From the IMG/VR virus record IMGVR_UViG_2568526722_000001: DNA of 32,452 bases; one strand, 5' to 3'. Within the stretch, counting starts at the first letter, position 1; each line of letters opens with the position of its first letter. The stretch is from a virus (Duplodnaviria; Heunggongvirae; Uroviricota; Caudoviricetes). Under the pieces are notes generated by a model. The model was given only the letters and a program-made list of their open reading frames with translations, searched no databases and was not told the DNA's origin. Below are positions 11,387-30,900 of the stretch, in pieces. The position numbers were made by a program, and so were the translations under genes.

Positions 11387-11523
11387 ACAGCCTTGCTTTA
11401 TGAATAAAACGCACCCCAGCAGCCAGTGCTACTGGGGGCGGAGGTGTTGCTGGTAAAGTTAGGTATTGGATCAATGAGTGAGTCAATATAATATTAAACT
11501 CACAATTATAAATCAGCCATATA

Positions 11524-12981
11524 TTAGGAGCGCCAAAAAAAACCTGAAAACAATATAATAACAGGATAAATTTCAAGGCGACCAAGAATCATAGCTATGC
11601 ACATTAAATATTTTGCAATGTCATTAAGCACTCCGAATGACGATGCAGTAGCCCCAAAACCTAATCCCATATTATTAATACATGCAGCCACTGTTGCAAA
11701 TGATGTAAGAAAATCATATCCCATACCATTTAACACCAGTATAAAAAACACCGTGAAGAGAGTATAAAGAAAAAAGAAACTCCATACAGACCTCATTACA
11801 CGATCTGTAACTATCTTCCCTCCTACATTTACACTCAACAACGCTCTGGGATGAGAAAGCTGATTTATCTCGTGTTTGCTTTGTTTGAAAAGTATAAGAA
11901 ATCGAAGTGACTTAATTCCACCACAAGTTGAACCTATACATCCCCCAAAGAAACTTGACGACAGCAAAAACACTATCGTGTGCGTGGGCCAGTTTGCATA
12001 ATCCTGCGTAGCTAAACCATTATCAGTGAGCATGGAGCTGGCAAGAAAAAACGAATGAATAAAACTTCCATGCAAGTCATACATACCTATATGCCAGACC
12101 TGGAAAGAGGTAACAATGATCACCCCTAAGGCTATTAACAGAAAGAAACGAAGTTCAATATCTCTGATTAAAGGTTTTATCGTTTTCCTGCTAATAACAA
12201 TATACCAAAGAGTGAAGTTGAAAGCCGATAGCAGGGAAAAAGAACCAGCCACCAGCTCAACCAAATAGTTATTAAAATATCCGATACTCTCGCTATGAGT
12301 TGAGAAACCACCAAGCGAAACTGTGGAAATCCCGTGACAAATAGCATCAAACAAAGGCATTCCTGCAAGTCTATAACAGACAATACAAGCAATACCTAAT
12401 AAAGAATAAGTTATCCACAGTGTCCGTGACGTATCGGCCAGGCGGGGAGTGAGTTTGTCATCCTTAAATGGCCCCGGCATTTCTGACTGATAAAGCTTTG
12501 CACCACCAATACCCAATAATGGCAATACAGCAACCGCCAGAACAATAACTCCTAAACCACCTATAAAATTTAACTGTGACCGATAGTACAAATATGCCCG
12601 AGGTAATGAACTAACATCATCAATTACAGTTGCTCCTGTTGTTGTTATTCCAGAAACCCCTTCAAACAGAGCATCAATGAACGTTAAATTAAGTTCTGAG
12701 TCAATCCATAAAGGGAATGCACTAATAACAGAAAACAAAATCCAAAACATTACAATTATAATAAACCCATCACGGGTACGTAATTGAATGCCAGATTTCT
12801 TAGTTGTATACCACGCTCCGCCACCAATGCAAAAAAATATAACGAAAGTTATAAAGAAAACGAACAGGCTTTTTTCTTTATAAAACAATGCTACAACCAT
12901 TGGTGGCAACATTGAAAGACTATAGAGCCAAACCAGGAACCCACACATATGAGTAACAACTCTTACATGAGATGTATTCAT
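11524..12981 (-). CDS. trkG: Potassium uptake protein TrkG
   Basis: 485-aa polytopic membrane protein from MNTSHVRVV..., matching my memory of the Rac prophage TrkG from E. coli K-12. The gene is visibly AT-rich compared with its neighbours. Confidence 0.9.
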   Translation of the reverse strand: MNTSHVRVVTHMCGFLVWLYSLSMLPPMVVALFYKEKSLFVFFITFVIFFCIGGGAWYTTKKSGIQLRTRDGFIIIVMFWILFSVISAFPLWIDSELNLTFIDALFEGVSGITTTGATVIDDVSSLPRAYLYYRSQLNFIGGLGVIVLAVAVLPLLGIGGAKLYQSEMPGPFKDDKLTPRLADTSRTLWITYSLLGIACIVCYRLAGMPLFDAICHGISTVSLGGFSTHSESIGYFNNYLVELVAGSFSLLSAFNFTLWYIVISRKTIKPLIRDIELRFFLLIALGVIIVTSFQVWHIGMYDLHGSFIHSFFLASSMLTDNGLATQDYANWPTHTIVFLLSSSFFGGCIGSTCGGIKSLRFLILFKQSKHEINQLSHPRALLSVNVGGKIVTDRVMRSVWSFFFLYTLFTVFFILVLNGMGYDFLTSFATVAACINNMGLGFGATASSFGVLNDIAKYLMCIAMILGRLEIYPVIILFSGFFWRS

Positions 12982-13118
12982 ATCTAAATATTCTTTCAAT
13001 TATAACCACCTTGCTGCAATATTATGATTATACTGTATAAAATTTAACTCCTCTTAGATCTTACTTCACTGTTCCTTATGAAACAATCATCAAAATGAAT
13101 CATATTGTAGTTAAGATT

Positions 13119-13583
13119 TTACTTTAAACACTGCTCGGTTATGTATTGCTGAGCACCTTCAAGTTGGGCCTGCATCATTACCAGTCGTTCCCGGAGGGTG
13201 AAATAATCCCGTTCAGCGGTGTCTGCCAGTCGGGGGGAGGCTGCATTATCCACGCCGGAGGCGGTGGTGGCTTCACGCACTGACTGACAGACTGCTTTGA
13301 TGTGCAACCGACGACGACCAGCGGCAACATCATCACGCAGAGCATCATTTTCAGCTTTCGCATCAGCTAACTCCTTCGTGTATTTTGCATCGAGCGCAGC
13401 AACATCACGCTGACGCATCTGCATGTCAGTAATTGCCGCGTTCGCCAGCTTCAGTTCTCTGGCATTTTTGTCGCGCTGTTCTTTGTAGGCGATGGCGTTA
13501 TCACGGTAATGATTAACACCCCATGACAGGCAGACGACGATGCAGATAACCAGAGCGGAGATAATCGCGGTTACTCTGCTCAT
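13119..13583 (-). CDS. rzpR: Rz i-spanin (intact lambda Rz homologue)
   Basis: [55 protein letters not shown]... is near-identical to lambda Rz as I remember it. The start overlaps the endolysin stop. Confidence 0.9.
13178..13363 (-). CDS. rzoR: Rz1 o-spanin lipoprotein, embedded in the +1 frame of Rz
   Basis: [61 protein letters not shown] has a signal peptide with a lipobox cysteine and a proline-rich body. It is near-identical to lambda Rz1. Confidence 0.85.
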
Positions 13584-14056
13584 ACCTCAATCTCTCTGAC
13601 CGTTCCGCCAGCTTCTTTGAATTTTGCAATCAGACTGTCAGCCTTATGCTCGAACTGACCATAACCAGCGCCCGGCAGTGAAGCCCATATATTGCTGCAA
13701 CGGTCGATAGCCTGACGGATATCACCGCGATCAATCATCGGCAAAGCGCCACGCTCTTTAATCTGCTGCAGCGCTACAGCATCCTGACTTTCTGGAGAAA
13801 AATCTTTCAGGCCAAGTTGCTTGCGGTAGGCATCCCACCAGCGTGAAAGAAGCTGGTAACGTCCAGCGGCTGTTGATTTGAGTTTCGGATTTAGCGTGAC
13901 AAGTTTGCGGGGGTGATCGGAGTAATCAGTGAACAGTTCGCCACCGACAATAACATCATAACCGTGATTTCTGGTTTTCTGCCGTCCGTTATCTGTTCCT
14001 TCTGACCATGCCACCATATCAAGGAAAGCTTTACGCTGGGAATTAAGTGTCTGCAT
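13580..14056 (-). CDS. Endolysin (lambda R-like lytic transglycosylase)
   Basis: 158-aa protein: [62 protein letters not shown]... is near-identical to lambda R. AAGGAG Shine-Dalgarno 6 nt before the ATG. Confidence 0.9.
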
Positions 14057-14059
14057 TAA

Positions 14060-14401
14060 TTACTCCTTATGGGCACCGAACTTGTTACCGATGACCCTCA
14101 TTGCCGCACCACGAATAGCATCAACACCAATCAGCCCCACCCCACCACCAATGGCAACAGAAAGTGATTTAGGCCATCCGACATACTCAAGCGCGGATGC
14201 AAAGGTCAGCGTCAGAGCACCACAAAGCAGAATCTCAAGCGTTTTTCGTTTCCAGCCGCCGCCACCGCCAAAATAGGCAATGCGCAAACCAGCCATAATA
14301 ATTGACATAACCACTGCACCCAGCGGCGTATCTCCACGCCACCAACTTTGTAAGAGTTCCAGTAAGTCAGGCCAGGAATGAGGGGCATTGTGCATTTTCA
14401 T
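14060..14401 (-). CDS. Holin (class I-like) with an M-K-M dual-start motif
   Basis: Lies immediately upstream of the endolysin and has three predicted transmembrane segments. GGAGG sits 8 nt before the ATG at 14401, and a second in-frame ATG lies two codons later (MKMHNAP...), as in lambda S107/S105. The track ORF begins at a GTG at 14410. Confidence 0.7.
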   Translation of the reverse strand: MKMHNAPHSWPDLLELLQSWWRGDTPLGAVVMSIIMAGLRIAYFGGGGGWKRKTLEILLCGALTLTFASALEYVGWPKSLSVAIGGGVGLIGVDAIRGAAMRVIGNKFGAHKE

Positions 14402-14494
14402 AAGCCTCACCTCCGAGAGTTCGGATGGTGCTAAGTGTAAGATTCAGGCTCTCAGGCTTGCTAACAAGAAGTCGAGGATGTTTCCGGAGCCTAA

Positions 14495-14524
14495 CAACGA
14501 AAAAGCCCCGGGACATGCCGGGGC
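14495..14524 (-). terminator. Intrinsic terminator between the moron gene and the holin
   Basis: GC-rich 7-bp stem (gccccgg / ccggggc) with a 6-nt loop. On the minus strand the hairpin is followed by uuuucguugu. Confidence 0.5.
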
Positions 14525-14618
14525 CAGATGGAGTGCCAGATTAAGCTTCTGGCGGTATATACTCGTGTTTGATATCGTTAAATCGCCAAAAGTAACAATT
14601 CAAACAAAGAGGATTTTT

Positions 14619-14780
14619 ATGTCTGAAAAAAACAAACCACAAGGTGAAAATAAACCTCAGCACCCCGTGGCACCAAAACCAACTCCAACACAAAGTACTA
14701 CAGACTTTGCTACACGTCGTGTTTTTGTTGGAGATTCTGCCGACTCAGTCATTGAACATATAAAAAAACAGCCGAGATAA
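14619..14780 (+). CDS. Small hypothetical protein of 53 aa
   Basis: The ATG at 14619 is preceded by AAGAGG. The product MSEKNKPQGENKPQHPVAPKPTPTQSTTDFATRRVFVGDSADSVIEHIKKQPR is proline/lysine-rich with no recognisable domain. It converges on and overlaps the 3' end of the moron gene. Confidence 0.3.
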   Translation: MSEKNKPQGENKPQHPVAPKPTPTQSTTDFATRRVFVGDSADSVIEHIKKQPR

Positions 14781-15318
14781 ACATCGCCGCTACCGGAGCA
14801 AGGATGGTATACATCCTTGCTTTATCGAGACTCGTGCGGATTTTCTCATTTTCCAACAGTAACTCTCTTGCTGTATCACTCAAGTCAACAAGGCGATACC
14901 TTCGTATAAGCGGCAATAACTTATCAGGTCCTAAATATCCTGCATCAGCGAATATTTTAAAGCTCGAGGGCTCCATATCCTTATATTTTTCATGATATAG
15001 ATGATCAGGAGGGGCATTGATCAGGCCCCTAACCTTCACAGATAAACCAGTACATACCAAGTAAATGGCGCACCATGTCCATAGTAATGTAAATGTGGTA
15101 ATTCCGGCGGTGAGAAAATCGAAATTAGTTTTCTGTGTCAGCAATAAAAAAGATGAACCAATTCCAACAATCTGAATGTTCAGAAGTTTGTATCCATTCT
15201 CAACATTGGTTTTGTTAGAAAGATGAATCTCTCGTATCGTCTCTTCCCCTTGTTTTTCAAGATAATCGACGAGCTCATCATCTACTCCTAAAAAATAATC
15301 TTTAGGTAGTTCTCTCAT
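14749..15318 (-). CDS. Uncharacterised membrane protein (moron between Q and the lysis cassette)
   Basis: ATG at 15318 with a strong GGAGGTGAG Shine-Dalgarno. The 189-aa product has a cytoplasmic-looking N-terminal domain, then hydrophobic segments (FLLLTQKTNFDFLTAGITTFTLLWTWCAIYLVC and MYTILAPVAAMFISAVFLYVQ). The gene is AT-rich. Confidence 0.55.
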   Translation of the reverse strand: MRELPKDYFLGVDDELVDYLEKQGEETIREIHLSNKTNVENGYKLLNIQIVGIGSSFLLLTQKTNFDFLTAGITTFTLLWTWCAIYLVCTGLSVKVRGLINAPPDHLYHEKYKDMEPSSFKIFADAGYLGPDKLLPLIRRYRLVDLSDTARELLLENEKIRTSLDKARMYTILAPVAAMFISAVFLYVQ

Positions 15319-15426
15319 CTCACCTCCACATCCTGTACTGAAAACAATTTTACCAGAATGTCTCGATTCTAGGTATTCCGCCAGGAATCGCGCTCCAGAA
15401 ATGAAACATCAGGTTCGCCAGTACCA

Positions 15427-15456
15427 GAAACAACAAAACCCGCTCAATGGCGGGTT
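15427..15456 (-). terminator. Intrinsic terminator downstream of Q (tR'-like)
   Basis: Hairpin aacccgc / gcgggtt with a 6-nt loop, followed on the minus strand by uuguuguuucugg. It lies about 85-115 nt downstream of the Q stop. Confidence 0.5.
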
Positions 15457-15539
15457 CTGGTAAAGTTCATGCGCTTGGTTCGCCTCGCGATACAGCTTTG
15501 CGAAGCATACCGGAATTGAAGCAGTTTATGCGTAAAAAA
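15457..15539 (-). promoter_or_regulatory. Candidate late promoter (pR'-like) and Q-utilisation region
   Basis: Positional inference only: the interval between the Q stop and the tR'-like terminator. The minus strand contains TTGATT, then 17 nt, then TTCAAT as a weak -35/-10 candidate. Confidence 0.3.
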
Positions 15540-16082
15540 TCAAGCTATTTTTTGAGCAAATGATTCTCGCATGGGAATATATAGGGCATACTCAGCAACA
15601 GCCAACCAATTAGCAATTCGCTTTTCGCATGTGCTAAAACACCACTCAGGATGTGCATCATTTAGCAATTCAGCCATTTTGCGCTTAGTCATCCCCCGTC
15701 CTTCATACCGTTGCCGGAGGACACTAATCAATCCAGGATGCTCTGCCAGCACCTCACTTATGACTCTATCAATACATAACGCCTCTGCATCAGTACAATG
15801 CGCCAGCCAGGTCTTTTGCTTGCCATTGATCATCTCTCGCAAAAACGCTTCCAGCTCAGGTTTCTCTATTCCCGCTTTTTTCATCCTGCGCAGGGCTTCA
15901 TTGACGGCTGTTTTCGTCAATTTTTTGGATGCCAGCAACTGGTTAAACATATTTCCCGTCTTACCGCCGCCAATATACGACCAGCGCCCCCACATGCGCA
16001 GTTTTCCCTGAATCCAGACACTTTCCAGCGTGGTGAGACGAAGGTGTTCCCCGCTTTTGCCTGTATTTGTTGGGTAAATCAT
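15540..16082 (-). CDS. Late-gene antiterminator Q
   Basis: The protein (MIYPTNTGKSGEHLRLTTLESVWIQGKLRMWGRWSYIGGGKTG...) resembles lambdoid Q antiterminators. It lies upstream of the lysis genes. The ATG at 16082 overlaps the upstream stop (ATGA) and has GAAGG at -6. Confidence 0.75.
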   Translation of the reverse strand: MIYPTNTGKSGEHLRLTTLESVWIQGKLRMWGRWSYIGGGKTGNMFNQLLASKKLTKTAVNEALRRMKKAGIEKPELEAFLREMINGKQKTWLAHCTDAEALCIDRVISEVLAEHPGLISVLRQRYEGRGMTKRKMAELLNDAHPEWCFSTCEKRIANWLAVAEYALYIPMRESFAQKIA

Positions 16083-16369
16083 AAATAACCTTCCTTTCTC
16101 CAGATTTCTTGTGTGCGAAAAACACCTTCTGCATGCATCAGGCGTAATTCTTCTTTGGTGTAATCGCTGGTTTTTACCCGCCCGTCGATTAAATCGTGGC
16201 ATGAGCTACAGGCAATCGCTGCCTGCATATCGTGTGGTTTTGTCACTGTTCCGCACGTCCCCGCCAGCCTGTAATGCGCCAGCACAGATGTTTCGGGATT
16301 GTGATTGCAGTAGCCAGGAATTCTGACGGTGCACATCTGCCCCCGCGCCGCTTTACGTAAATCCACCAT
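16079..16369 (-). CDS. YbcO-like protein (DUF1364; putative nuclease of the nin region)
   Basis: 96 aa: MVDLRKAARGQMCTVRIPGYCNHNPETSVLAHYRLAGTCGTVTKPHDMQAAIACSSCHDLIDGR... This has the same length and cysteine pattern as DLP12 YbcO. Confidence 0.7.
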   Translation of the reverse strand: MVDLRKAARGQMCTVRIPGYCNHNPETSVLAHYRLAGTCGTVTKPHDMQAAIACSSCHDLIDGRVKTSDYTKEELRLMHAEGVFRTQEIWRKEGYL

Positions 16370-16968
16370 TACGCAAACTCCAGCAGCTGCGCGGCCACAT
16401 TTTCGACTTGTTCCGGAGAGGAAAATTTACGGAACAGAATCCAGTTCCACAGCACATTCAGAACAGATTTATAAACCTGCTGAAACTCGGTTTCGTCCAT
16501 ATTCGCAAAAGCGATAGATTTTGCCCGACGCCCGCGGCTACCGTCCGGATAAAAATGTTCGGTGTAAAATCCAGCCTGAATGGTTACCCACTCGCGAAAA
16601 GCCTCAAACGACTTTAGCAATGCCGTATCCCGGGTTCTGCGTGTCGCAACTGTATTCAGATATTGCTCTGCGGCATCACTCAGGGCTGGCGTGTGTTCCC
16701 GACCAACTGATTCGCACAGGTAATCAACGAAACCAGACAGCAGTTCTCGTTCGCGAGGCGTGATCGCCCCACCGACCGGAGTCCAGTAATCGAATCCCAG
16801 TTGCAGGAGTTTGAAAAAACGCTTGTGGAATGCGTAGTTACGCACACGCTTAAAGTCTGCGTGTATCCACTCGCCTATTTTGATTTGATGCAGAAAATCA
16901 CAACTCTCCGGCGTCGCCGGGAGAAGTAATCCGGAAGAGGTTTGTTTGACCAGTTGTATATGCGCCAT
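16369..16968 (-). CDS. nin-region protein (DUF1367-like)
   Basis: 199-aa ORF with a confirmed ATG, immediately upstream of the YbcO-like gene with a TAA/ATG junction. The family assignment is from memory of the typical DUF1367-DUF1364 gene pair. Confidence 0.5.
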   Translation of the reverse strand: MAHIQLVKQTSSGLLLPATPESCDFLHQIKIGEWIHADFKRVRNYAFHKRFFKLLQLGFDYWTPVGGAITPRERELLSGFVDYLCESVGREHTPALSDAAEQYLNTVATRRTRDTALLKSFEAFREWVTIQAGFYTEHFYPDGSRGRRAKSIAFANMDETEFQQVYKSVLNVLWNWILFRKFSSPEQVENVAAQLLEFA

Positions 16969-17240
16969 TTCTTAATCTCTCGATGGCGCAGCGCAGCAGA
17001 TGCCAGTTGTTCAGGCTGACGTATGAAGTATAAATAAACTGGCTCCAGTGTAAAGCCCCACCTTAATGGAATAAAAACCAAACAACAGATTGCTGGGATA
17101 CAAACAACGCTTATTATTAAAAGCGGTTAAACAAATTAAATTTTAATGTTATGCAAATCTGCCAGATCACCATAATATCTCATTTAAAAACCGCTGAAAT
17201 AACAACCCTATTAGGGTTAATCATATTAAGGTGAGTAAAT

Positions 17241-17327
17241 ATGGAAAACAACAAATCTGCACATTACGTTCCTTTTTTATCTGTAATACTTTTTGTTTTA
17301 TGCTGTGCGTGGGCATTATTTTTATAA
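17241..17327 (+). CDS. Candidate small hydrophobic peptide of 28 aa
   Basis: ATG preceded by AAGGTGAG at -7. The product MENNKSAHYVPFLSVILFVLCCAWALFL would be a single transmembrane helix. It converges on the hok-like gene. Confidence 0.25.
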   Translation: MENNKSAHYVPFLSVILFVLCCAWALFL

Positions 17328-17433
17328 AAATATTCACAGATAAAATATACCCGCCAAAGTTGGTTAAGTGCGGGTGCGTTGAGGATGCCTGACTCATCAG
17401 AGGTGGCGAGGGATTTCTCCCTCGCCTGGTCTC

Positions 17434-17586
17434 TCACTCCTCAGGTTCGTAAGCTGTGAAGACAGCGACCTCCGTCTGACCGGTTCGGATTTGTACCTCG
17501 CAGAAGTCTTTCCTTGTTACCAGTGCCATCACAACGACGGTAATACAGATGACAATCAGGGCGATTAACATCGTCTTTTGCTGCAT
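17434..17586 (-). CDS. hok: Hok/Gef-family type I toxin
   Basis: The 50-aa product MQQKTMLIALIVICITVVVMALVTRKDFCEVQIRTGQTEVAVFTAYEPEE is highly similar to HokC(Gef) and HokD(RelF) as I remember them. A perfect 8-bp stem hairpin (ggcgaggg / ccctcgcc) follows the stop at about 17405-17427. Confidence 0.8.
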   Translation of the reverse strand: MQQKTMLIALIVICITVVVMALVTRKDFCEVQIRTGQTEVAVFTAYEPEE

Positions 17587-17600
17587 CACAGCCTACTTAC

Positions 17601-17635
17601 CCTTACCTTTCGTTCAAGCGGTAAGGTCACTTTTT
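17601..17635 (+). ncRNA. Candidate Sok-like antisense RNA 3' end (terminator hairpin plus T-tract) next to the hok start
   Basis: Plus-strand inverted repeat ccttacc (12 nt) ggtaagg followed by tcactttttctg, 15 nt beyond the hok start codon. Position and orientation fit an antisense RNA terminator. The 5' end and promoter are not identified. Confidence 0.3.
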
Positions 17636-17734
17636 CTGTTGTGTGCTAACCAACAAACCTCTTTTATCTGCATTAAAAATCGTTATCATGTCATCCTCAA
17701 CCTGTTAATAGCCTATTATGGACTTTAGTAAACA

Positions 17735-19564
17735 ATGAGCACTTCCGCATACAAGAGCAAAATTCGAACACTCCAGTGCGCGTTAAAAAACGGTGAATTT
17801 GAACCATTCATACAACATATCCGTTTTCCATACTTTAAAAATATAGAGCAGAATGCAAGGATCGATTTTCAGTTCCCTATAACGGCTTTAGTAGGAAAAA
17901 ATGGAACTAATAAAAGTTCTGTTATCAAAGCGCTATTTGGTTGCCCACATGGTAAAAATATAACTCGTTATTGGTTCACAACTGAAACAGATGAGTTTCC
18001 TGACCTAAAACTTGCTGATGGCAGTTCTCTTAAACCTAGATATATATATGGATATAAAAATGCTGATGGCCGTTTAGTTGAAATACTCCAAGCACGTATC
18101 AATGCTACCAAGAAAACAATCGATTATTGGGAAACAAGTCGACCATCTGTTGGTGATAACATGGAGAGTATTTCGGATGATCTGGGTGCTAATAGTAATG
18201 CAACCAGATGGAAAAAAATCAAGAAGGGATTGGTTTTCCTAGATTTCAGATCGGAAATAAGTGCATTTGATAGATGTATGTATCACTCTGATTTTAAATT
18301 AAGAAAGAAGAAGAGTGGTGTATTAATTACAAAGCAAGACTATATCAGAAGCAAATCTAAATATATAAAGAAAGCTTTTGATGAAAAGCTAAGTAATTTA
18401 AGACTCTGGGGGGCGGAAACCATTGTTAAAAATATAACCTTGGCGCCAGAACTAGTTGAGCACGTCTCATTTATATTAGGGAAAAAATATAAAGTCATTA
18501 AATTTCTTGAGCATCGGTTATTTGGAACCAGAGGAGGAACCGCTTTACTTTCAACTGATAAGTTGAACTATACAGAAGCGTTTGCTGGAAGTGGTGAATT
18601 TGCAATAGTTTCACTAATACTCAATATTTATTCGGCCAAACCTAATTCATTAATTCTTCTTGACGAACCAGAAGTTTCACTTCACCCTGGTGCACAAAAA
18701 AGGATGATGGATGTTCTGTACTCTATTGTTGAGCAGAAAAAACATCAAGTGGTAATATCAACCCATTCTCCTGTTATTGTGAACACTCTTCCCAAAGATG
18801 CCATTAAATTATTTGTTTTTGATGAAGAGAGTGAAACAGCTAAAATAGTTCAAAATATAGCACCGGATGAAGCTTTTATAGAGCTAGGGCATGATATTAA
18901 CAAGAAAACAATAATTGTAGAAGATAAATTAGCTAAAGCAATTATAGATAAAGCGATTAAAAATGATGAAAGATTAAGCTTATCATTTAGTGTAAGTTAT
19001 ATACCAGGTGGTTCGGAGACCATTTTAAGCAAGCATCTTCCCAGTTACGCTGTGGTAGAACGCAATGATATTTTGTTTTTACTTGATGGTGATAAAAACA
19101 AAAAAATAAAACCAGTAAGAATTAGTGAAATTGCTGATGCTGATTTAGTTAATACAATGTGCAAATATTATGGTTGCGAGTTAATTATCAATGCCAGTGG
19201 TAGTAATGGCAAAAAAAATGAACAAGAATCTAATAGACTCAAAAGGCAAGTGCTTGAGTATGCATTCAATAAAGTGCAGTATTTACCATTTGATACTCCC
19301 GAACAATTACTCATTGAAAAGGCAATTACGCCAAGTGAAAAAGAAATAATTGATTCACAGACCTGGAGTTCTAATGATCCAGAACTGTATAAGAATCAAA
19401 TAAGATTATTAGCGCAACACCTGTATGATAAAGAAGAAGTAAATGCAGAGGAAATTTTTTGCCTCCAACAAATGATGACCGCAAGACTTAAAAATGAATT
19501 GCCTGAATTTATAAAAATAAGAAAAATAATTACTCAGGCTCTTGACCGTGGTATCATTAGGTAG
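17735..19564 (+). CDS. ABC-type ATPase with a C-terminal TOPRIM-like domain (OLD-family / GajA-like putative nuclease)
   Basis: Walker A (LVGKNGTNKSS); a long insert; signature-like AFAGSGEF; Walker B (LILLDEPEVSLH); H-loop (VISTHSP). The C-terminal region has an invariant-Glu motif (TIIVEDKLAKAII) and a DxD motif (LFLLDGDKNKK) as in TOPRIM. 609 aa, in an AT-rich segment. Confidence 0.7.
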   Translation: MSTSAYKSKIRTLQCALKNGEFEPFIQHIRFPYFKNIEQNARIDFQFPITALVGKNGTNKSSVIKALFGCPHGKNITRYWFTTETDEFPDLKLADGSSLKPRYIYGYKNADGRLVEILQARINATKKTIDYWETSRPSVGDNMESISDDLGANSNATRWKKIKKGLVFLDFRSEISAFDRCMYHSDFKLRKKKSGVLITKQDYIRSKSKYIKKAFDEKLSNLRLWGAETIVKNITLAPELVEHVSFILGKKYKVIKFLEHRLFGTRGGTALLSTDKLNYTEAFAGSGEFAIVSLILNIYSAKPNSLILLDEPEVSLHPGAQKRMMDVLYSIVEQKKHQVVISTHSPVIVNTLPKDAIKLFVFDEESETAKIVQNIAPDEAFIELGHDINKKTIIVEDKLAKAIIDKAIKNDERLSLSFSVSYIPGGSETILSKHLPSYAVVERNDILFLLDGDKNKKIKPVRISEIADADLVNTMCKYYGCELIINASGSNGKKNEQESNRLKRQVLEYAFNKVQYLPFDTPEQLLIEKAITPSEKEIIDSQTWSSNDPELYKNQIRLLAQHLYDKEEVNAEEIFCLQQMMTARLKNELPEFIKIRKIITQALDRGIIR

Positions 19565-19587
19565 TGATTCTGGATGCAGAGGGAAAA

Positions 19588-20628
19588 ATGAAAAAAATCA
19601 AAGTGTTTGACTTCTTTTCCGGTTGTGGTGGAACCAGCCAAGGTTTCCATCAAGCTGGAATGGATATTGTTTTTGGCCTCGATTTCGACGTTGATGCAGC
19701 CAGTTCATTTCGTGCAAATTTCCCGCAGGCTGCTTTTATTAACTCGGACATTAGGTTAATCGACAACAATGCCATAAACAAGTTAGTAAAAAAACATCGT
19801 AATGATTACATTCTTTTTTCAGGATGTGCGCCTTGTCAACCGTACTCTAAGCAAAACTCAAATAAGAAAAATGATGATCCACGATTAGATCTATTAAAGG
19901 AATTCAGTCGCTTTGTAGAGCATTATATGCCTGATTTTATTTTTGTTGAAAACGTGCCAGGAATGCAAAAGTTTAACAAAAATGAAGGAACATTCATGAT
20001 GTTTTTAGAAATGCTTTCATCAAAGGGATATAGTGTAGATTATAAAGTAATGCCAGCTGCGTGGTACGGTGTACCACAGACGCGAGAAAGATTAGTGCTC
20101 ATTGCATCCAAGGATTTTTATGTCGCATTGCCTTCTCCTACACATGGGGTTGGAAATACTCCCTATTCAACAGTAAAGGACTGGATCGCTAATTTACCGA
20201 AGATAGAAGCAGGAGAAAAGCATAATAGTATTCCTGATCATGAAGCTGCACGCTTATCAGAGCTTAATTTACGTAGAATAAAATGCACTCCTGAAGGTGG
20301 AAGTCGAGAATTTTGGCCAGATGAATTGATTTTAGAATGCCATCGTAACCATAAAGGGCATACAGACGTATATGGACGTTTGAGTTGGGACAAACCAGCC
20401 AGCGGACTAACAACTCGTTGTATTAGCTATTCAAATGGACGTTTTGGACATCCAACACAAAATCGAGCAATATCGGTTCGTGAAGCAGCGTGTCTACAAA
20501 CATTTCCTTTGGATTATAAATTTATTGGTTCTTTGCAATCTCGGGCTCGTCAAATAGGAAATGCGGTCCCTCCGAAGATGTCTGAAACGATTGGAAAACA
20601 TTTGCTTAATATAATCAAAGCCTCCTAG
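19588..20628 (+). CDS. DNA (cytosine-5)-methyltransferase
   Basis: Canonical C5-methyltransferase motifs in order: I (FDFFSGCGG), IV (GCAPCQPYS), VI (ENVPGM), VIII (PQTRERLVLIA), IX (RAISVREAACLQTFPLDY), X (QIGNAVPP). Starts 23 nt after the ATPase stop; the track ORF begins earlier at a GTG at 19564. Confidence 0.9.
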   Translation: MKKIKVFDFFSGCGGTSQGFHQAGMDIVFGLDFDVDAASSFRANFPQAAFINSDIRLIDNNAINKLVKKHRNDYILFSGCAPCQPYSKQNSNKKNDDPRLDLLKEFSRFVEHYMPDFIFVENVPGMQKFNKNEGTFMMFLEMLSSKGYSVDYKVMPAAWYGVPQTRERLVLIASKDFYVALPSPTHGVGNTPYSTVKDWIANLPKIEAGEKHNSIPDHEAARLSELNLRRIKCTPEGGSREFWPDELILECHRNHKGHTDVYGRLSWDKPASGLTTRCISYSNGRFGHPTQNRAISVREAACLQTFPLDYKFIGSLQSRARQIGNAVPPKMSETIGKHLLNIIKAS

Positions 20629-20644
20629 GAGGCTTTATTTTATT
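20617..20644 (+). terminator. Intrinsic terminator at the end of the ATPase-methyltransferase cassette
   Basis: Perfect inverted repeat aaagcctcc / ggaggcttt with the methyltransferase stop codon TAG in the loop, followed by attttattg. Confidence 0.6.
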
Positions 20645-20661
20645 GTTATCCCCCCTAGTAG

Positions 20662-21093
20662 TTAATCGTGCTCACCAGACAACCTCCTGAAATTACTCTG
20701 GTAAAATGCCAGTACACGCTGCATAACTTCGCTTTTCCGGCACTCGCGACAGATTATATTCAGGCGCCTGTCGTAGCGGCGTATTTCTCCGTCTGGTAAT
20801 GACCAGATAAGGTCAGGATCAACCACAACCGTTTTTTTCACCTTTGCCCTGGATAGTTTTTTGCGGGCGTTTTGCCAGTCCTTACGAGCCTGCTCAGACG
20901 GGAATAATCCGTAGCCTGAATTGTAAACATCACCACTGGCGACCAGTTCTCTGGCGAGAGTGCTTATGTAATACCTTGATGCACCGGTTTTAGCCTCCAG
21001 AGCCCGTAACGTCTCGCGACCGCTCAGACGTACAAGTTCAACAACCTGCCCTTTAATTTTTTCCCGCTCTTCTGGTGTAAATACTTTTGCCAT
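20662..21093 (-). CDS. Hypothetical prophage protein of about 143 aa
   Basis: The ATG at 21093 has a GGAGG Shine-Dalgarno at -5 (MAKVFTPEEREK...). The C-terminal half is basic. No confident family assignment. Confidence 0.5.
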   Translation of the reverse strand: MAKVFTPEEREKIKGQVVELVRLSGRETLRALEAKTGASRYYISTLARELVASGDVYNSGYGLFPSEQARKDWQNARKKLSRAKVKKTVVVDPDLIWSLPDGEIRRYDRRLNIICRECRKSEVMQRVLAFYQSNFRRLSGEHD

Positions 21094-21108
21094 ATGTGCC
21101 TCCGGCAA

Positions 21109-21870
21109 TCACTTTTCCGACACAATACGACTGGAGGAATCGAAAATCTGTCGAACAATATCCCGGTGCTTGTTCAGCTCCCGCAGCGCGGCGCAGACTC
21201 GCTCCCACTTCTGGACATGATTTTTCGCCCGACGCAGTTCACGGTTTGCCATATGCAGCGATGGTAAAATCAGGTTATCCGCTTGCGTTTCAGTAAACGA
21301 TGGCAACGACTGCACAATGTCCGCCACAGTTTCTGTTTTAATATCTTCCTGTGTTGCAGCTTCCTGTACTGGTAACGCAACACCGGCTAGCTGAGGAAAG
21401 GCTTTACCATCTGTTTCCGCTACCGATGCAGCTTTCGGCTCTGCTGGTAAATTACCGCCCGGCATGCAGTAACGAAATTTACCGTTCTGATTAACGCGAA
21501 TCAGACGAGCTTTGCTGATTGCCATTGCCAGCGTTGAAGCCACTTTGCGGGATGTGGTACCGAACAACGTAGCCAGTTCATCCGCAGTTAGTGGACCACG
21601 TTGTTCAATCGTCGCAGTTAAATCGCTCTCTGAAATTTTCGCGACTGTTGCCGTGGTAGTTTCTTCCGGCAGTTCTGCCGGCGCTGGCTGTTCCTGCTGA
21701 ACGTTGTTATCAGCCACACGCCAGGTGTACGCGCTTTTATCAACGAAACCAGCCTTTTTCAGTTCCCATAGTTCGTTCAGCACTTCTTCACGGCTGATAT
21801 CAAGTCGCGCAGCAAGTTCTATGGATGTGGCTTTTCCCATTGCTTTCAGTGCGTCAAAAACAGTCTCCAT
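21109..21870 (-). CDS. Prophage protein with an N-terminal winged-helix-like domain (probable intact form of K-12 Rac ydaW)
   Basis: [43 protein letters not shown]... looks like a wHTH. It lies immediately downstream of the DnaC-like gene, as ydaW does in Rac. An alternative start at 21921 exists. Confidence 0.5.
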
Positions 21871-21892
21871 TAAATTTTTCTCCCGGTAAAAA

Positions 21893-22639
21893 TTACTTCG
21901 CAATTCCTGGCTGGACGACATTCGGACGCCAGCTCTCCCAGTTAAAATTCACCCATCGCCCGCCGTTCATGGTCATGCGATCCATAATCCTCTCGCCGAG
22001 CAATGTTTTCATGGCCTCATAATTCAGGTTTGTCAGCATCCCCACGCTGCGCATCGACGCTGTCCGGCGATCAACAATCTGGTGCAGCACCACCTGCTCG
22101 TTTTTTGTCTCGCGCTGAATGCCAATTTCATCAAGAACCAGCAGATCCACTTGGCACAGTTCCCGCAAAAATTTTTCGCCTGATTGCCCGTCGTCATAGC
22201 TGGCGTGTAGAGCACTCATGACATCAGCCACGGTAACCACAATCACTGTCTGGCCATCTTTCAGCAGGCGATTCCCGATAGCCGCCGCCAGATGGTTTTT
22301 TCCGGTACCAGGTTTTCCGCTGAACGCAAAATTTGTACACCCGGTCATCAGTTCATCAGCGATGGATTTCGCCTGACTCAACGCGTATCGCTGCCCTTCG
22401 TTCTGCACCTGGTAATTCGAAAACGAGCATTTGCGGTGCAATGGCTGGATGCCAGAGCGATTAAGAATTTTTTCCACCCGCAACTGACGATTCTGACGGT
22501 TGATCTCCTCACAACGTTTCTGGCCTTCGGAAAGTTGCCACTCGCGCCACTCCGCTACCGTCTTGAATGGCGCGGTTACATGTGACGGGGCCAGTCTGCG
22601 GATACGTTCAAGAACATCGCCTGTCGCAATATTTTTCAT
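21893..22639 (-). CDS. ydaV: DnaC-like replicative helicase loader (IstB-like ATPase)
   Basis: Walker A ([17 protein letters not shown]) and Walker B ([10 protein letters not shown]). At 248 aa it matches the length of Rac YdaV. Confidence 0.85.
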
Positions 22640-22645
22640 GGTCAG

Positions 22646-23434
22646 TTACCCCCTGAAGCCTGGCGGGATCGCACTATCCGGTAACGAGACGGTGTTAACC
22701 TGTCGGAGTAACGTCTCAGGTCGAACACCTTTCGGCGCGAACAAGCCCTGGTATTCATTGGCGATGCTGTGTCGAATCACCTGCTCAGGTGAAAAACCCT
22801 GCTGGCGGAATTTTTCCAGCTCCCGTATCGCCCCGTTAGCGCCCTGCTCCGTTCGAATCGGTTTTCGCAATGCCTGCCTGAACTGAACCCACTCATGCCA
22901 GAGTGTTTCCGGCAACCAGTCAGGCAGCTCGATAGCCTCCGGTTCGAATTTTTTAGACGCTCGTTTTTGGCGAGGGGGATTTAGGGGGAGATAAGTATTT
23001 ATATCTTCCTCTTTCTCTTCCTCTGGTAACGCTTTTTGATCCGTTTTTGTAACGCTGGCAGCGTTACCTTTTCGTTTCAGTTCTCGTATTTTTGTTACTC
23101 TCTCGTTTGTAACCGCCCGTTTTTTAGAGCTTTTCCCGTTATGGCGCTCAAAGTTAGGAAGCGACAACACACCATTAGTTTCGACCAGCCATCCAACCTG
23201 AATTAACGCATCAGCAAAACCAGCCATAAAAGTGATGCGATCTATTGCACTTTTTGTAACGCCGCGAGCGTTACACTCTGCGTTACCGTCTATCATTTGT
23301 TGATCCGCCCATGCCCAGAAGCGAATGACTTTCCCTAATGCGGCATCTGGATCAATATTCAGAATCTCAGCAAGCCTGAATATTTCCGGCTTATCCGGCG
23401 TAATAACTTCGAGCTTTATCCAGTTTGAAGCCAT
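22646..23434 (-). CDS. ydaU: Replication initiation/primosomal protein (DUF1376, DnaT-like; YdaU-like)
   Basis: Positioned immediately upstream of the DnaC-like gene. The N-terminal domain has a conserved-looking RFWAWADQQ block. Contains two of the three GTAACGC-N5-GCGTTAC palindromes. Confidence 0.6.
   Translation of the reverse strand: MASNWIKLEVITPDKPEIFRLAEILNIDPDAALGKVIRFWAWADQQMIDGNAECNARGVTKSAIDRITFMAGFADALIQVGWLVETNGVLSLPNFERHNGKSSKKRAVTNERVTKIRELKRKGNAASVTKTDQKALPEEEKEEDINTYLPLNPPRQKRASKKFEPEAIELPDWLPETLWHEWVQFRQALRKPIRTEQGANGAIRELEKFRQQGFSPEQVIRHSIANEYQGLFAPKGVRPETLLRQVNTVSLPDSAIPPGFRG
23049..23067. repeat. 19-bp palindrome GTAACGC-N5-GCGTTAC, copy 1 (inside the ydaU-like gene)
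   Basis: gtaacgc tggca gcgttac, with perfect 7-bp arms. An additional gtaacgc half-site lies about 20 bp upstream. Confidence 0.6.
23256..23274. repeat. 19-bp palindrome GTAACGC-N5-GCGTTAC, copy 2 (inside the ydaU-like gene)
   Basis: gtaacgc cgcga gcgttac, followed 5 bp later by another gcgttac half-site. Confidence 0.6.
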
Positions 23435-23511: not shown

Positions 23512-23934
23512 TCAATGCACTACGACAGAATCGCTAGGAGAACCGCCGCCGCTGAAATGTGCTTTACGGTAAACGGCCTGGACTGCATCATCATGCGCAT
23601 CAATTGCCGTACTCAGTGCATCCTGTGCCGCCAGTAATGCACGGCGTTCCAGGGTATCGAAGATGCAGAGTCGGTGACGCAGCTCGCGAGGAAGAATTGC
23701 CAGAACCGCAGGGATCAGTTTCTGAATTTTTTCCCTTTGCGCATTCGTTTCACCTTTCAACCAACGATGATAGATATTCTGCTGATTGTTCCAGTCCTTG
23801 CCTGGTACCAGGGGCAATTCGCCGCCCCCCTGGCGCAGATATTCTTCAGTAATTGCGTTAGCGACCCACGCCTGCCCTTTTTCGGCTGCCAGGGCTAACA
23901 ACACTGATTCGATGTGCTCATGCTTGATTTTCAT
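23512..23934 (-). CDS. ydaT: YdaT (CII-like regulator of Rac)
   Basis: 140 aa (MKIKHEHIESVLLALAAEKGQAWV...), the same length as K-12 YdaT. Its start overlaps the ydaS stop (ATGA), as in the ydaS-ydaT operon. Confidence 0.75.
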   Translation of the reverse strand: MKIKHEHIESVLLALAAEKGQAWVANAITEEYLRQGGGELPLVPGKDWNNQQNIYHRWLKGETNAQREKIQKLIPAVLAILPRELRHRLCIFDTLERRALLAAQDALSTAIDAHDDAVQAVYRKAHFSGGGSPSDSVVVH

Positions 23935-24185
23935 GAATCAACTCCCATCAGCTTTTTCGTAGTAGTTTTATTTCTGCCAATAGTTAAAATTGCATCGGCA
24001 GAAAATAATCCGTTTGATGCATGAGCGATTTTTTCAGCGTAATTTGTTTCGCCGGTATATTCTGTGCGAGGCAATTTTCCGTTATCCATCCATTTGTAGA
24101 TTGCTCTTTGGCTGACACCACAAACGTCGGCCACAACAGAAACGCGAACAGTTTTGATTACATCTTCAAGTGTTTTCTGGTTCAT
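23931..24185 (-). CDS. ydaS: Cro-like HTH regulator (YdaS-like)
   Basis: HTH segment VADVCGVSQRAIYKWMDNGKLP. It is divergent from the repressor gene and first in the early-right operon. The start is uncertain: the ATG for MNQKTLED... is used; the track ORF extends to 24257. Confidence 0.6.
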   Translation of the reverse strand: MNQKTLEDVIKTVRVSVVADVCGVSQRAIYKWMDNGKLPRTEYTGETNYAEKIAHASNGLFSADAILTIGRNKTTTKKLMGVDS

Positions 24186-24264
24186 ATCATCCTCACAATG
24201 TGAACTTTGAGTACATGCTATAACAGAACTGACAGTACATTCAAGAGCGAATATCATTGAACTT
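24186..24264. promoter_or_regulatory. Divergent promoter/operator region between ydaS and racR (OR-like)
   Basis: An 80-bp interval between divergent regulator genes. It contains two direct AGTACAT motifs about 24 bp apart (near 24211 and 24235) and a short TTCAA...TTGAA inverted repeat. Confidence 0.4.
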
Positions 24265-24684
24265 ATGGTTCATGAAGATAAAGCGCGTAAAGAGTTCGCC
24301 AGTAGGCTTGCGCTAGCCTGTGAAAACGCTGGTTATGAACAACATGGAAGGCAGGCAGAAATTGCCCGTCGAATGAAATTAACACCAAAAGCGGTTAGCA
24401 AATGGTTTAATGGTGAAACAATTCCTCGCCGAGAGAAATTAAGGGAATTAGCAACACTCATTGGAACAACACCAACCTATCTTTTGGGAGAGGATACAGA
24501 AGAAAGTGGACAGATACGTTTCTATCAGGAGTTAAATCCAAGACAAAAAATCATCATTGACCTTCTGGACGAGCTCCCTGACAGTGAGACAGATGAACTT
24601 TTAAAAACTCTTGAGGAGAAAAAACAGAAGTACAATGCAATTTACGAAGAGTTAGCACGAAAGAAAAAACAAAAAGCCTCTTAA
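24265..24684 (+). CDS. racR: Prophage repressor (XRE-family HTH; RacR-like)
   Basis: HTH segment QAEIARRMKLTPKAVSKWFNGETIP. It is divergent from ydaS-ydaT, the position of RacR/cI. The length (139 aa) differs from my recollection of K-12 RacR (158 aa), so the symbol is tentative. Confidence 0.6.
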   Translation: MVHEDKARKEFASRLALACENAGYEQHGRQAEIARRMKLTPKAVSKWFNGETIPRREKLRELATLIGTTPTYLLGEDTEESGQIRFYQELNPRQKIIIDLLDELPDSETDELLKTLEEKKQKYNAIYEELARKKKQKAS

Positions 24685-30512: not shown

Positions 30513-30719
30513 ATGACAAAAACTTTGAGATATGACGATGTTAAACCATGTCCGTTTTGTGGTTGTCCATCAGTAACGGTGAAAGACATTTCAGGATATT
30601 ACCGGGCAAAATGCAACGGATGCGAATCCCGAACTGGCTATGGTGGAAGTGAAAAAGAAGCGCTCGAAAGATGGAATAAACGAACCACTGAAAATATTAA
30701 TGGAGGCGTTCATGTATAA
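30513..30719 (+). CDS. ralR: RalR (Lar) restriction-alleviation protein / type I toxin
   Basis: ...RYDDVKPCPFCGCPSVTVKDISGYYRAKCNGCESRTGYGGSEKEALERWNKRTT... The 64-aa core matches K-12 RalR. The start may instead be the TTG at 30525. Confidence 0.7.
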   Translation: MTKTLRYDDVKPCPFCGCPSVTVKDISGYYRAKCNGCESRTGYGGSEKEALERWNKRTTENINGGVHV

Positions 30720-30900
30720 AATTACCGCTACAATTGAAAAGGAAGGTGGCACTCCTACTAACTGGACAAGATATTCAAAATCTAAACTAACGAAATCAGA
30801 ATGCGAAAAAATGCTCTCAGGTAAAAAAGAAGCAGGCGTTTCCAGAGAGCAGAAAGTAAAACTGATAAATTTTAATTGCGAGAAACTTCAGTCCTCGTGA
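30712..30900 (+). CDS. ydaC: YdaC-like small protein
   Basis: MYKITATIEKEGGTPTNWTRYSKSKLTKSECEKMLSGKKEAGVSREQKVKLINFNCEKLQSS, with GGAGG upstream of the ATG. It overlaps the ralR stop. Confidence 0.6.
   Translation: MYKITATIEKEGGTPTNWTRYSKSKLTKSECEKMLSGKKEAGVSREQKVKLINFNCEKLQSS

Follow-up and report, generated by a model that had tools for sequence, protein, structure and literature searches.

A reversed, AT-rich cassette encoding a predicted OLD-family nuclease and a cytosine-5 methyltransferase has replaced the hok leader of a Rac-like prophage

How did an AT-rich pair of genes come to lie backwards inside the early-right operon of a lambdoid prophage, and what might the pair do there? The question is raised by IMG/VR record IMGVR_UViG_2568526722_000001, a stretch of 32,452 nucleotides (nt; hereafter the window) that holds an intact Rac-like E. 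coli prophage, in which a 3048-bp island encodes a predicted ABC-ATPase/TOPRIM protein of the OLD family (the ATPase) followed by a predicted DNA cytosine-5 (m5C) methyltransferase. The island is best read as a moron, that is, a self-contained and horizontally acquired transcription unit, which makes it an ordinary kind of feature in a variable slot. Beyond this, we lean modestly towards the view that the moron arrived by recombination in a slot typical of Rac/Qin-like lambdoid prophages and that it carries a methylation-coupled defence module resembling restriction-modification (R-M). The parts of the island are as follows.

17613..20660, unstranded: the island, 3048 bp between two homology breakpoints with related prophages, AT-rich
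17651..17734, plus strand: cassette leader and presumed promoter region, 84 nt shared with a copy in Citrobacter
17735..19564, plus strand: OLD-family protein of 609 amino acids (aa), an N-terminal ABC ATPase followed by a C-terminal TOPRIM nuclease and helical domain
19588..20628, plus strand: DNA cytosine-5 methyltransferase of 346 aa, starting 23 nt past the ATPase stop
20617..20636, unstranded: cassette terminator, a G+C-rich hairpin (AAAGCCTCC-TAGG-AGGCTTT) that overlaps the stop codon of the methyltransferase gene

The island is compositionally foreign to the DNA around it. Monitoring GC content in 500-nt windows gave values of 0.31-0.37 from 17.75 to 20.25 kb and about 0.50 on either side, and the value for 17613-20660 as a whole was 0.359, compared with 0.463 in the remainder of the window. 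All 467 other windows of the same length within the 32,452 nt had a mean of 0.463 (standard deviation (sd) 0.021, minimum 0.416), which places the island about 5 sd off. GC content at third codon positions was 0.26 in the ATPase gene and 0.29 in the methyltransferase gene versus 0.45-0.62 in neighbouring genes. The island holds two long plus-strand open reading frames (ORFs; 17735-19564 and 19564/19588-20628), and all genes around it lie on the minus strand, including every operon gene from the cro-position and ydaT-like genes to Q. A first-pass annotation of this sequence had proposed exactly such a block, AT-rich, foreign and reversed between the replication genes and the nin/Q genes, and had suggested sliding-window GC and codon usage as checks; GC content and third-position GC both differ from the flanks and this core reading stands. 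Its outline needed redrawing, since it placed the block at 17100-20650 with three plus-strand genes: the right edge was close to the breakpoint at 20660 and the ATPase and methyltransferase are indeed on the plus strand, but the left edge is 17613 and there are only two genes. The supposed third gene, a small plus-strand peptide, has no counterpart here, the sole supported small gene being hok, a minus-strand gene of the backbone. We rejected a plus-strand ORF of 59 aa at 17549-17728, which had no Pfam or PADLOC match; its first third is antisense to hok, it crosses the recombination junction, and it is a junction artefact.

The boundaries of the island were determined by alignment and BLAST against four related prophages (L003, L020, L021 and L022), with L022, a Qin-like prophage of a B strain, serving as the empty site. 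The region from DUF1367 to hok is common to thousands of lambdoid prophages, with about 90% identity to hokD loci and homology ending near 17612-17615, and most of 17100-17612 is backbone common to other prophages. BLAST put the left break exactly at 17612/17613 in 4/4 prophages, which stay homologous about 170 nt deeper into the hok leader, where the window diverges. At the right edge (20660/20661), the earliest homology to other prophages is at 20661, the DUF977 stop codon. In the empty site, only 238 bp separate DUF977 from hokD, and these contain, just upstream of hokD, an Rfam sok match (RF01794, 115 bits) that served as a positive control. Rfam detected no sok in the window, either at E<=0.1 or at the gathering threshold, and neither sok nor other RNAs in 16000-21500; the control in L022 accounts for the missing sok, whose region is what the window has lost. 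Since the 238 bp of L022 hold sok while the window has none, the 3048-bp block has replaced the hok regulatory leader, a 238-bp hok/sok segment including mok/sok.

What is left of the hok/sok locus is the hok ORF; the mok/sok antisense leader is absent, with leader homology ending at 17612. Within 17434-17612 the hok ORF is intact, its ATG changed to GTG and its second codon being ATG. This hok may not be expressed, or its only control may come from read-through or from Sok provided in trans, and loss of sok and mok is known for K-12 hokD/relF. At the junctions there were neither direct nor inverted repeats, so that the flanking direct repeats for which the first-pass annotation had advised a search are not present, and no transposase or integrase was found among the ORFs within the island. 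The leftmost 38 nt or so of the island (17613-17650) have no match in the backbone or in the Citrobacter cassette.

The extent of the mobile unit emerged from the Citrobacter copy (83% ATPase identity), whose surroundings are unrelated: there the cassette is flanked by tRNA-Ser and a prophage integrase. DNA homology to it begins at about 17651, 84 nt before the ATG, and continues until shortly beyond the hairpin at 20617-20636, and therefore the unit that moves comprises the leader, the two genes and the terminator, the classical anatomy of a moron. The hairpin is kept in the Citrobacter copy and homology ends directly after it; on both strands it scores as terminator-like, with a good T-tract on the plus strand (ATTTTATTGT) and a poor one on the minus strand (ATTATATTAA). 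The leader contains a TATCAT hexamer resembling a -10 element at 17684-17689, and the cassette promoter would lie within these 84 nt.

Carriers of the cassette numbered 32 among 5426 complete E. coli genomes, all 32 with the same flanks, and one of them was a mosaic prophage of an O103 Shiga toxin-producing E. coli. No K-12 record is listed among them, which fits the remark in the first-pass annotation that K-12 Rac lacks the block. The copy in E. coli EC11 (L104, 1501-3331) is the only lesioned one of the 32: one inserted base pair breaks the ATPase in two close to the DxD motif of TOPRIM, and the methyltransferase remains identical. None of the phages in INPHARED encoded an ATPase relative of full length, so that only prophages and chromosomes are seen to carry the family. 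Morons of lambdoid phages are independent transcription units inserted between phage genes (PMC3594210), and the island resembles them in its foreign composition, its own leader and terminator, its presence or absence among related phages and its position between two functional modules. It differs in that it faces against the early-right operon and has replaced the hok/sok leader, and its promoter is a predicted one.

Related prophages carry other contents in the same place. The slot, bounded by DUF977 or DUF1627 on one side and by hok or DUF1367 on the other, was polymorphic, holding AbiH with a hypothetical gene for an unknown 463-aa protein, also reversed (L003, 6176-8565); a P-loop ATPase of the Sll1717 family (L004, 5689-7758); small nin-type ORFs, Dcm and a reversed pair of an ATP-binding protein and an O-methyltransferase (L018, 752-4251); QueH (L020, 5130-5795); or, in another related prophage, small ORFs and a methyltransferase. 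Alignment with related prophages thus returned other cargo or an empty site, with the two genes of the window not collinear there, and the alternative named in the first-pass annotation, that they are an ancestral part of the operon, falls away. Fixed slots of a prophage backbone with interchangeable anti-phage cargo are known as prophage and satellite defence hotspots in P2/P4 (PMC9122126). The slot described here, with AbiH, the Sll1717 ATPase and the ATPase-methyltransferase dyad as its cargo, is of this type and differs in belonging to the Rac/Qin-like lambdoid family and in lying between DUF977 and hok. It looks like an unmined defence hotspot, and we found no description of it in the searchable literature.

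The first gene of the cassette encodes a predicted ATPase-nuclease of the OLD family. Its 609-aa product matched AAA_21 and AAA_15 in Pfam, and its best PADLOC models were HEC-04 and retron ATPase-Toprim_I-B, the top match being a partial one to the HEC-04 profile (117 bits, residues 232-459, profile positions 160-383 of 494). In 25 homologues with 38-83% identity, Walker A (G54-S62), D310-E311-P312-E313 and H344 were invariant, as were the TOPRIM residues E396-D397 and D451-G452-D453. The protein thus has an N-terminal ABC ATPase with Walker A, Walker B/D-loop and H-loop, as well as a TOPRIM domain at the C terminus with the conserved glutamate and DxD metal-binding motif, and these invariant residues therefore point to an OLD-family ATPase-nuclease. 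The TOPRIM assignment was obtained from a separate model of the C-terminal domain, whose best structural matches were Bp OLD, AriB and Ts OLD; when the family profile was searched against the PDB, nothing aligned beyond the ABC signature region (E=3e-11 at best), to which sequence similarity with solved OLD proteins is confined.

Placing this protein within the OLD family is less straightforward. Classes 1-4 are the stand-alone, helicase-linked, retron-linked and split PARIS types, none of them defined by a methyltransferase (PMC6755086, PMC10568477), and methyltransferases are nowhere mentioned in a 2023 review of the family. Like P2 Old, Thermus scotoductus OLD (6p74), GajA, the retron effectors and PARIS AriA/AriB, the protein has an ABC ATPase followed by TOPRIM and a helical domain, in a single polypeptide with invariant metal-binding E and DxD residues. 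Unlike Class 1 it does not stand alone, having a conserved m5C methyltransferase as its neighbour; the UvrD/PcrA-like helicase (GajB) of Class 2 (Gabija) is not adjacent in the window or in nine annotated neighbourhoods; and, being one polypeptide with no reverse transcriptase in those neighbourhoods, it fits neither Class 3 nor Class 4. Its conserved partner, in place of those of Classes 2-4, is the m5C methyltransferase. A closer comparison is HEC-04, an ABC-ATPase/TOPRIM protein that defends against T4 and T5, needs its Walker A and TOPRIM residues, and was also found embedded in methylase-containing Hma systems (bioRxiv 10.1101/2024.01.29.577857), and IbfA, which behaves similarly and is anti-phage (PMC12111858). 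These share the domain order, and the spacing of E...DxD is 55/2 here and 56/2 in HEC-04; they differ in being single genes of about 500 aa, whereas the present protein has 609 aa, a partial profile match and a locked association with a methyltransferase.

The second gene is, judged by its motifs, an intact and complete m5C methyltransferase that is predicted to be active. It matched DNA_methylase in Pfam at 5e-61 and TIGR00675 (dcm) at 1e-48, and motifs I (FSGCGG), IV (PCQ, Cys83), VI (ENV), VIII (QTRER) and X (GNAVPP) are kept in eight orthologues, giving the catalytically complete motif set expected of an R-M methyltransferase. Among solved structures, its best sequence matches were the catalytic domains of eukaryotic DNMT1 (E about 1e-38), well ahead of M.HaeIII and M.HhaI. 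One source labels a relative with 63% identity M.HgiDII. We set aside GTCGAC, the target site guessed from this label, as uninformative: the window has one site where about six would be expected from composition, and GTCGAC is generally rare in coliphage DNA, for which reason the count says little.

The two genes belong together far beyond this prophage. Close inspection of nine neighbourhoods, with ATPase identities of 38-83%, showed the ATPase followed by the methyltransferase in 9/9, several with stop and start codons overlapping by 4 nt. ATPase identity was 83% in Citrobacter, 67% in Serratia, 51% in Yersinia, 39% in a second E. coli lineage and 38-41% in Bradyrhizobium, Pseudomonas and Microbulbifer. 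Most of these contexts were prophages, with the pair beside int, beside an S24 repressor or between Q and holin. The second E. coli lineage of the dyad (8/5426 complete genomes) lies reversed between Q and holin in other lambdoid prophages (L010-L013, 6001-8835), the site of the Stx genes in Stx phages.

A wider scan with one genome per species yielded 250 species with an ATPase relative, and the best 80 loci were classified by the position of the methyltransferase. It lay immediately downstream of the ATPase in 43/80 and immediately upstream in 16/80, adding up to 59/80 adjacent pairs; a further 10/80 had it on the same strand 1-4.8 kb upstream and 1/80 on the opposite strand, and the 10/80 loci without one included four that end at a contig edge. 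Among the 80 loci are members of Proteobacteria, Actinomycetota, Bacteroidota, Bacillota, Acidobacteriota and further groups. The two genes are thus tightly linked across phyla, and the proteins have diverged in step (pairwise methyltransferase versus ATPase identities, r=0.89), the methyltransferase, including its target-recognition region, being more conserved (55-93%) than the ATPase (38-83%). We found no paper that describes a dyad of an OLD ATPase/TOPRIM protein and an m5C methyltransferase. The cargo departs from described OLD and R-M systems as a variant of these known kinds; morons and prophage defence hotspots are already well known.

Some loci carry a separate restriction enzyme, of the R.HpaII or GHKL type, in addition to the strongly linked methyltransferase and predicted nuclease. 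In eight loci examined with genes between the methyltransferase and the ATPase, the intervening genes encode GHKL ATPases fused to Hypoth_Ymh, to a PD-(D/E)xK-like C-terminus (recognised by eye, with no family hit) or to histidine-kinase-like modules. In two Bacteroidota loci (L088, 3657-7764; L090, 3645-7752), the ATPase gene comes third, with overlap, in an operon of M.HpaII-like and R.HpaII genes, and one Actinomycetota locus without Dcm has an m5C-reading domain of the AspBHI type beside the ATPase. In the loci examined, the ATPase family is tied to cytosine-5 methylation, but some loci offer further nuclease candidates besides the ATPase. Restriction enzymes of the R.NmeAIP, R.HgiDII and EcoUTORF4938P types are catalogued as unusual, and HgiDII is a type II R-M system whose restriction enzyme has a GHKL N-terminal domain (PMC2441816, PMC2292703). 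The cassette is like such systems in the M.HgiDII label of its methyltransferase relative and in the operons that distant ATPase relatives share with GHKL proteins of these three types; it differs in that the partner is an OLD ABC-ATPase/TOPRIM protein instead of a GHKL protein.

How might the cassette work? It would have entered the slot by recombination that replaced the 238-bp hok/sok leader, and not by transposition. The m5C methyltransferase would mark host and prophage DNA, and the ATPase/TOPRIM nuclease would use ATP to attack the nucleic acid of invading phages not bearing this mark, following an R-M-like logic in which the OLD nuclease takes the restriction role and methylation serves as the self-mark that it reads. 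Its orientation opposite to lytic transcription, together with a leader and terminator of its own, would let the cassette be expressed in the lysogen, where the dyad probably protects the host against other phages. This reading is supported by the dyad being the majority form, by the co-divergence of its proteins and by its mostly prophage contexts. The EC11 copy, with the nuclease lost and the methyltransferase kept, has the asymmetry expected under a methylation-coupled module, and the anti-phage activity of HEC-04 and IbfA supports the defence reading by analogy.

Several observations weigh against this proposal. A consensus scan called no strong sigma-70 site in the leader. The nuclease gene comes first in the operon, with no controller protein, an awkward arrangement for the establishment of a classical R-M system, and no sequence-reading domain is evident in the nuclease. 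P2 Old, PARIS and HEC-04/IbfA (bioRxiv 10.1101/2024.01.29.577857; PMC12111858) act without a methylation mark, and some of these systems cleave tRNA; P2 Old and PARIS act as abortive sensors. The methyltransferases lack the diversification of specificity typical of R-M families. In at least 8/80 loci, the ATPase follows a methyltransferase and another NTPase or nuclease gene, two of them with a complete HpaII-type system and the others with GHKL proteins of the R.HgiDII/NmeAIP type, and such three-gene loci suggest that an accessory or back-up role fits better than that of sole restriction enzyme.

Much of this would be accommodated if the ATPase guarded the methyltransferase. It would then be a latent suicide nuclease, possibly a tRNase, that is checked by the methyltransferase or monitors it and is released when a phage inhibits or depletes the methyltransferase or an R-M complex. 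PrrC held by EcoprrI offers an analogy, as does PARIS triggered by Ocr, and tRNase activity is reported for PARIS AriB and P2 Old. The loci with the ATPase third behind a methyltransferase and an R.HpaII or GHKL-type enzyme carrying Hypoth_Ymh (at least 8/80) are consistent with such a guard, the pairing of a conserved methyltransferase with a rapidly evolving ATPase fits a sensor caught in an arms race, and relatives work as abortive systems independent of methylation. However, 59/80 loci have the methyltransferase only, with no other restriction gene to back up, and we know of no phage inhibitor of type II m5C methyltransferases. We consider this guard or abortive model rather unlikely, although as the main rival it keeps real weight, and the other three explanations are much less likely. 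The two genes could be independent cargo, a self-protecting anti-restriction methyltransferase, such as lambdoid nin regions commonly have, beside a stand-alone defence gene of the Class 1 or HEC-04 type, as orphan methyltransferases in the same region of related prophages and single-gene ATPase-TOPRIM proteins that defend alone might indicate. Yet adjacency persists down to 33-40% ATPase identity, in many phyla, in both gene orders and often with overlapping codons, and the two proteins co-diverge (r=0.89); chance hitch-hiking does not outlast such divergence, and for that reason this explanation is improbable.

A role in repair is less probable still. The ATPase/TOPRIM protein would then be an analogue of Vsr that processes T:G mismatches arising from deaminated 5-methylcytosine, which would account for the link to cytosine-5 methylation seen in HgiDII-like and HpaII-like partners and one AspBHI-like m5C-reading domain, and MutS and other ABC ATPases do read mismatches. 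All characterised OLD-family proteins are nevertheless defence nucleases, the family is found overwhelmingly in prophages and mobile islands, and no search returned similarity to Vsr or to the mismatch-binding domains of MutS. As for how the island arrived, its discreteness, sharp edges and foreign composition could mark an insertion borne by a transposon or insertion sequence in place of a recombinational moron. We rejected this origin, the least probable of all, as the junctions have no direct or inverted repeats, no transposase or integrase lies inside, 238 bp of resident sequence were replaced with no target duplication, and the 38 nt or so at 17613-17650 match neither backbone nor Citrobacter cassette. 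The defence module carried by a recombinational moron is therefore the reading towards which we continue to lean. More tentatively, and with somewhat less than even confidence, we propose that methyltransferase-linked ATPase/TOPRIM proteins form a fifth OLD-family class coupled to cytosine-5 methylation, spread by prophages through at least 250 bacterial species of many phyla, whose members would be either ATP-dependent restriction subunits of a novel type of R-M system or nucleases that guard the methyltransferase.

Around the island, the backbone genes are arranged as follows, from the repressor to Q.

24265-24684, divergent: DicA-like repressor
23931-24257, minus strand: ORF in the cro position
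23512-23934, minus strand: ydaT-like gene
22646-23434, minus strand: gene in the ydaU position
21893-22639, minus strand: DnaC-like ydaV
21109-21921, minus strand: DUF1627 gene
20662-21108, minus strand: DUF977 gene, which closes the replication-side module and whose stop codon abuts the right junction
17434-17589, minus strand: hok (hokD-like), HOK_GEF at E=1e-21, a backbone gene and not cargo
16369-16968, minus strand: DUF1367 gene, with which the nin side begins downstream of hok
16079-16369, minus strand: YbcO gene
15540-16202, minus strand: Q-like DUF1133 gene, Phage_antitermQ at 27 bits (cutoff 26)

The segment 16500-21500 has 100% matches in public E. coli genomes; in L001, one of these, the prophage adjoins ttcA. 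The annotation of L001 is transferable to the window only over 15429-22900, the two being mosaic elsewhere, as at 13583-15428 of the window versus 13307-15927 of L001. In L001 the Q-like gene is separated from the lysis genes by tRNA-Gly and tRNA-Thr, and ARAGORN counted no tRNA in the window. A second AT-rich block lies at about 11500-13000 (GC 0.38-0.40), where the matching genome annotates trkG, the known foreign potassium-transporter gene of Rac. The sole Rfam hit at gathering level in the window was the antitoxin small RNA RalA (RF02694, 218 bits; 30718-30896, minus strand) of the type I toxin-antitoxin pair RalR/RalA.

With this arrangement, and as the first-pass annotation pointed out, early-right transcription would have to pass through some 3 kb of cassette in antisense before it arrives at hok, the nin-side genes and Q. 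Read-through of the hairpin on the minus strand is plausible, because that face of it has a weak T-tract. A hok gene stripped of its sok leader and a 3-kb antisense passage before Q may both affect prophage induction. The island itself is an ordinary moron, and what is useful are its content and its position: the DUF977-to-hok interval could be mined in the way that the P2/P4 hotspots have been, and an OLD class with a dedicated m5C methyltransferase would offer a testable answer to how self is told from non-self, with methylation as the self-mark or the methyltransferase as guarded bait.

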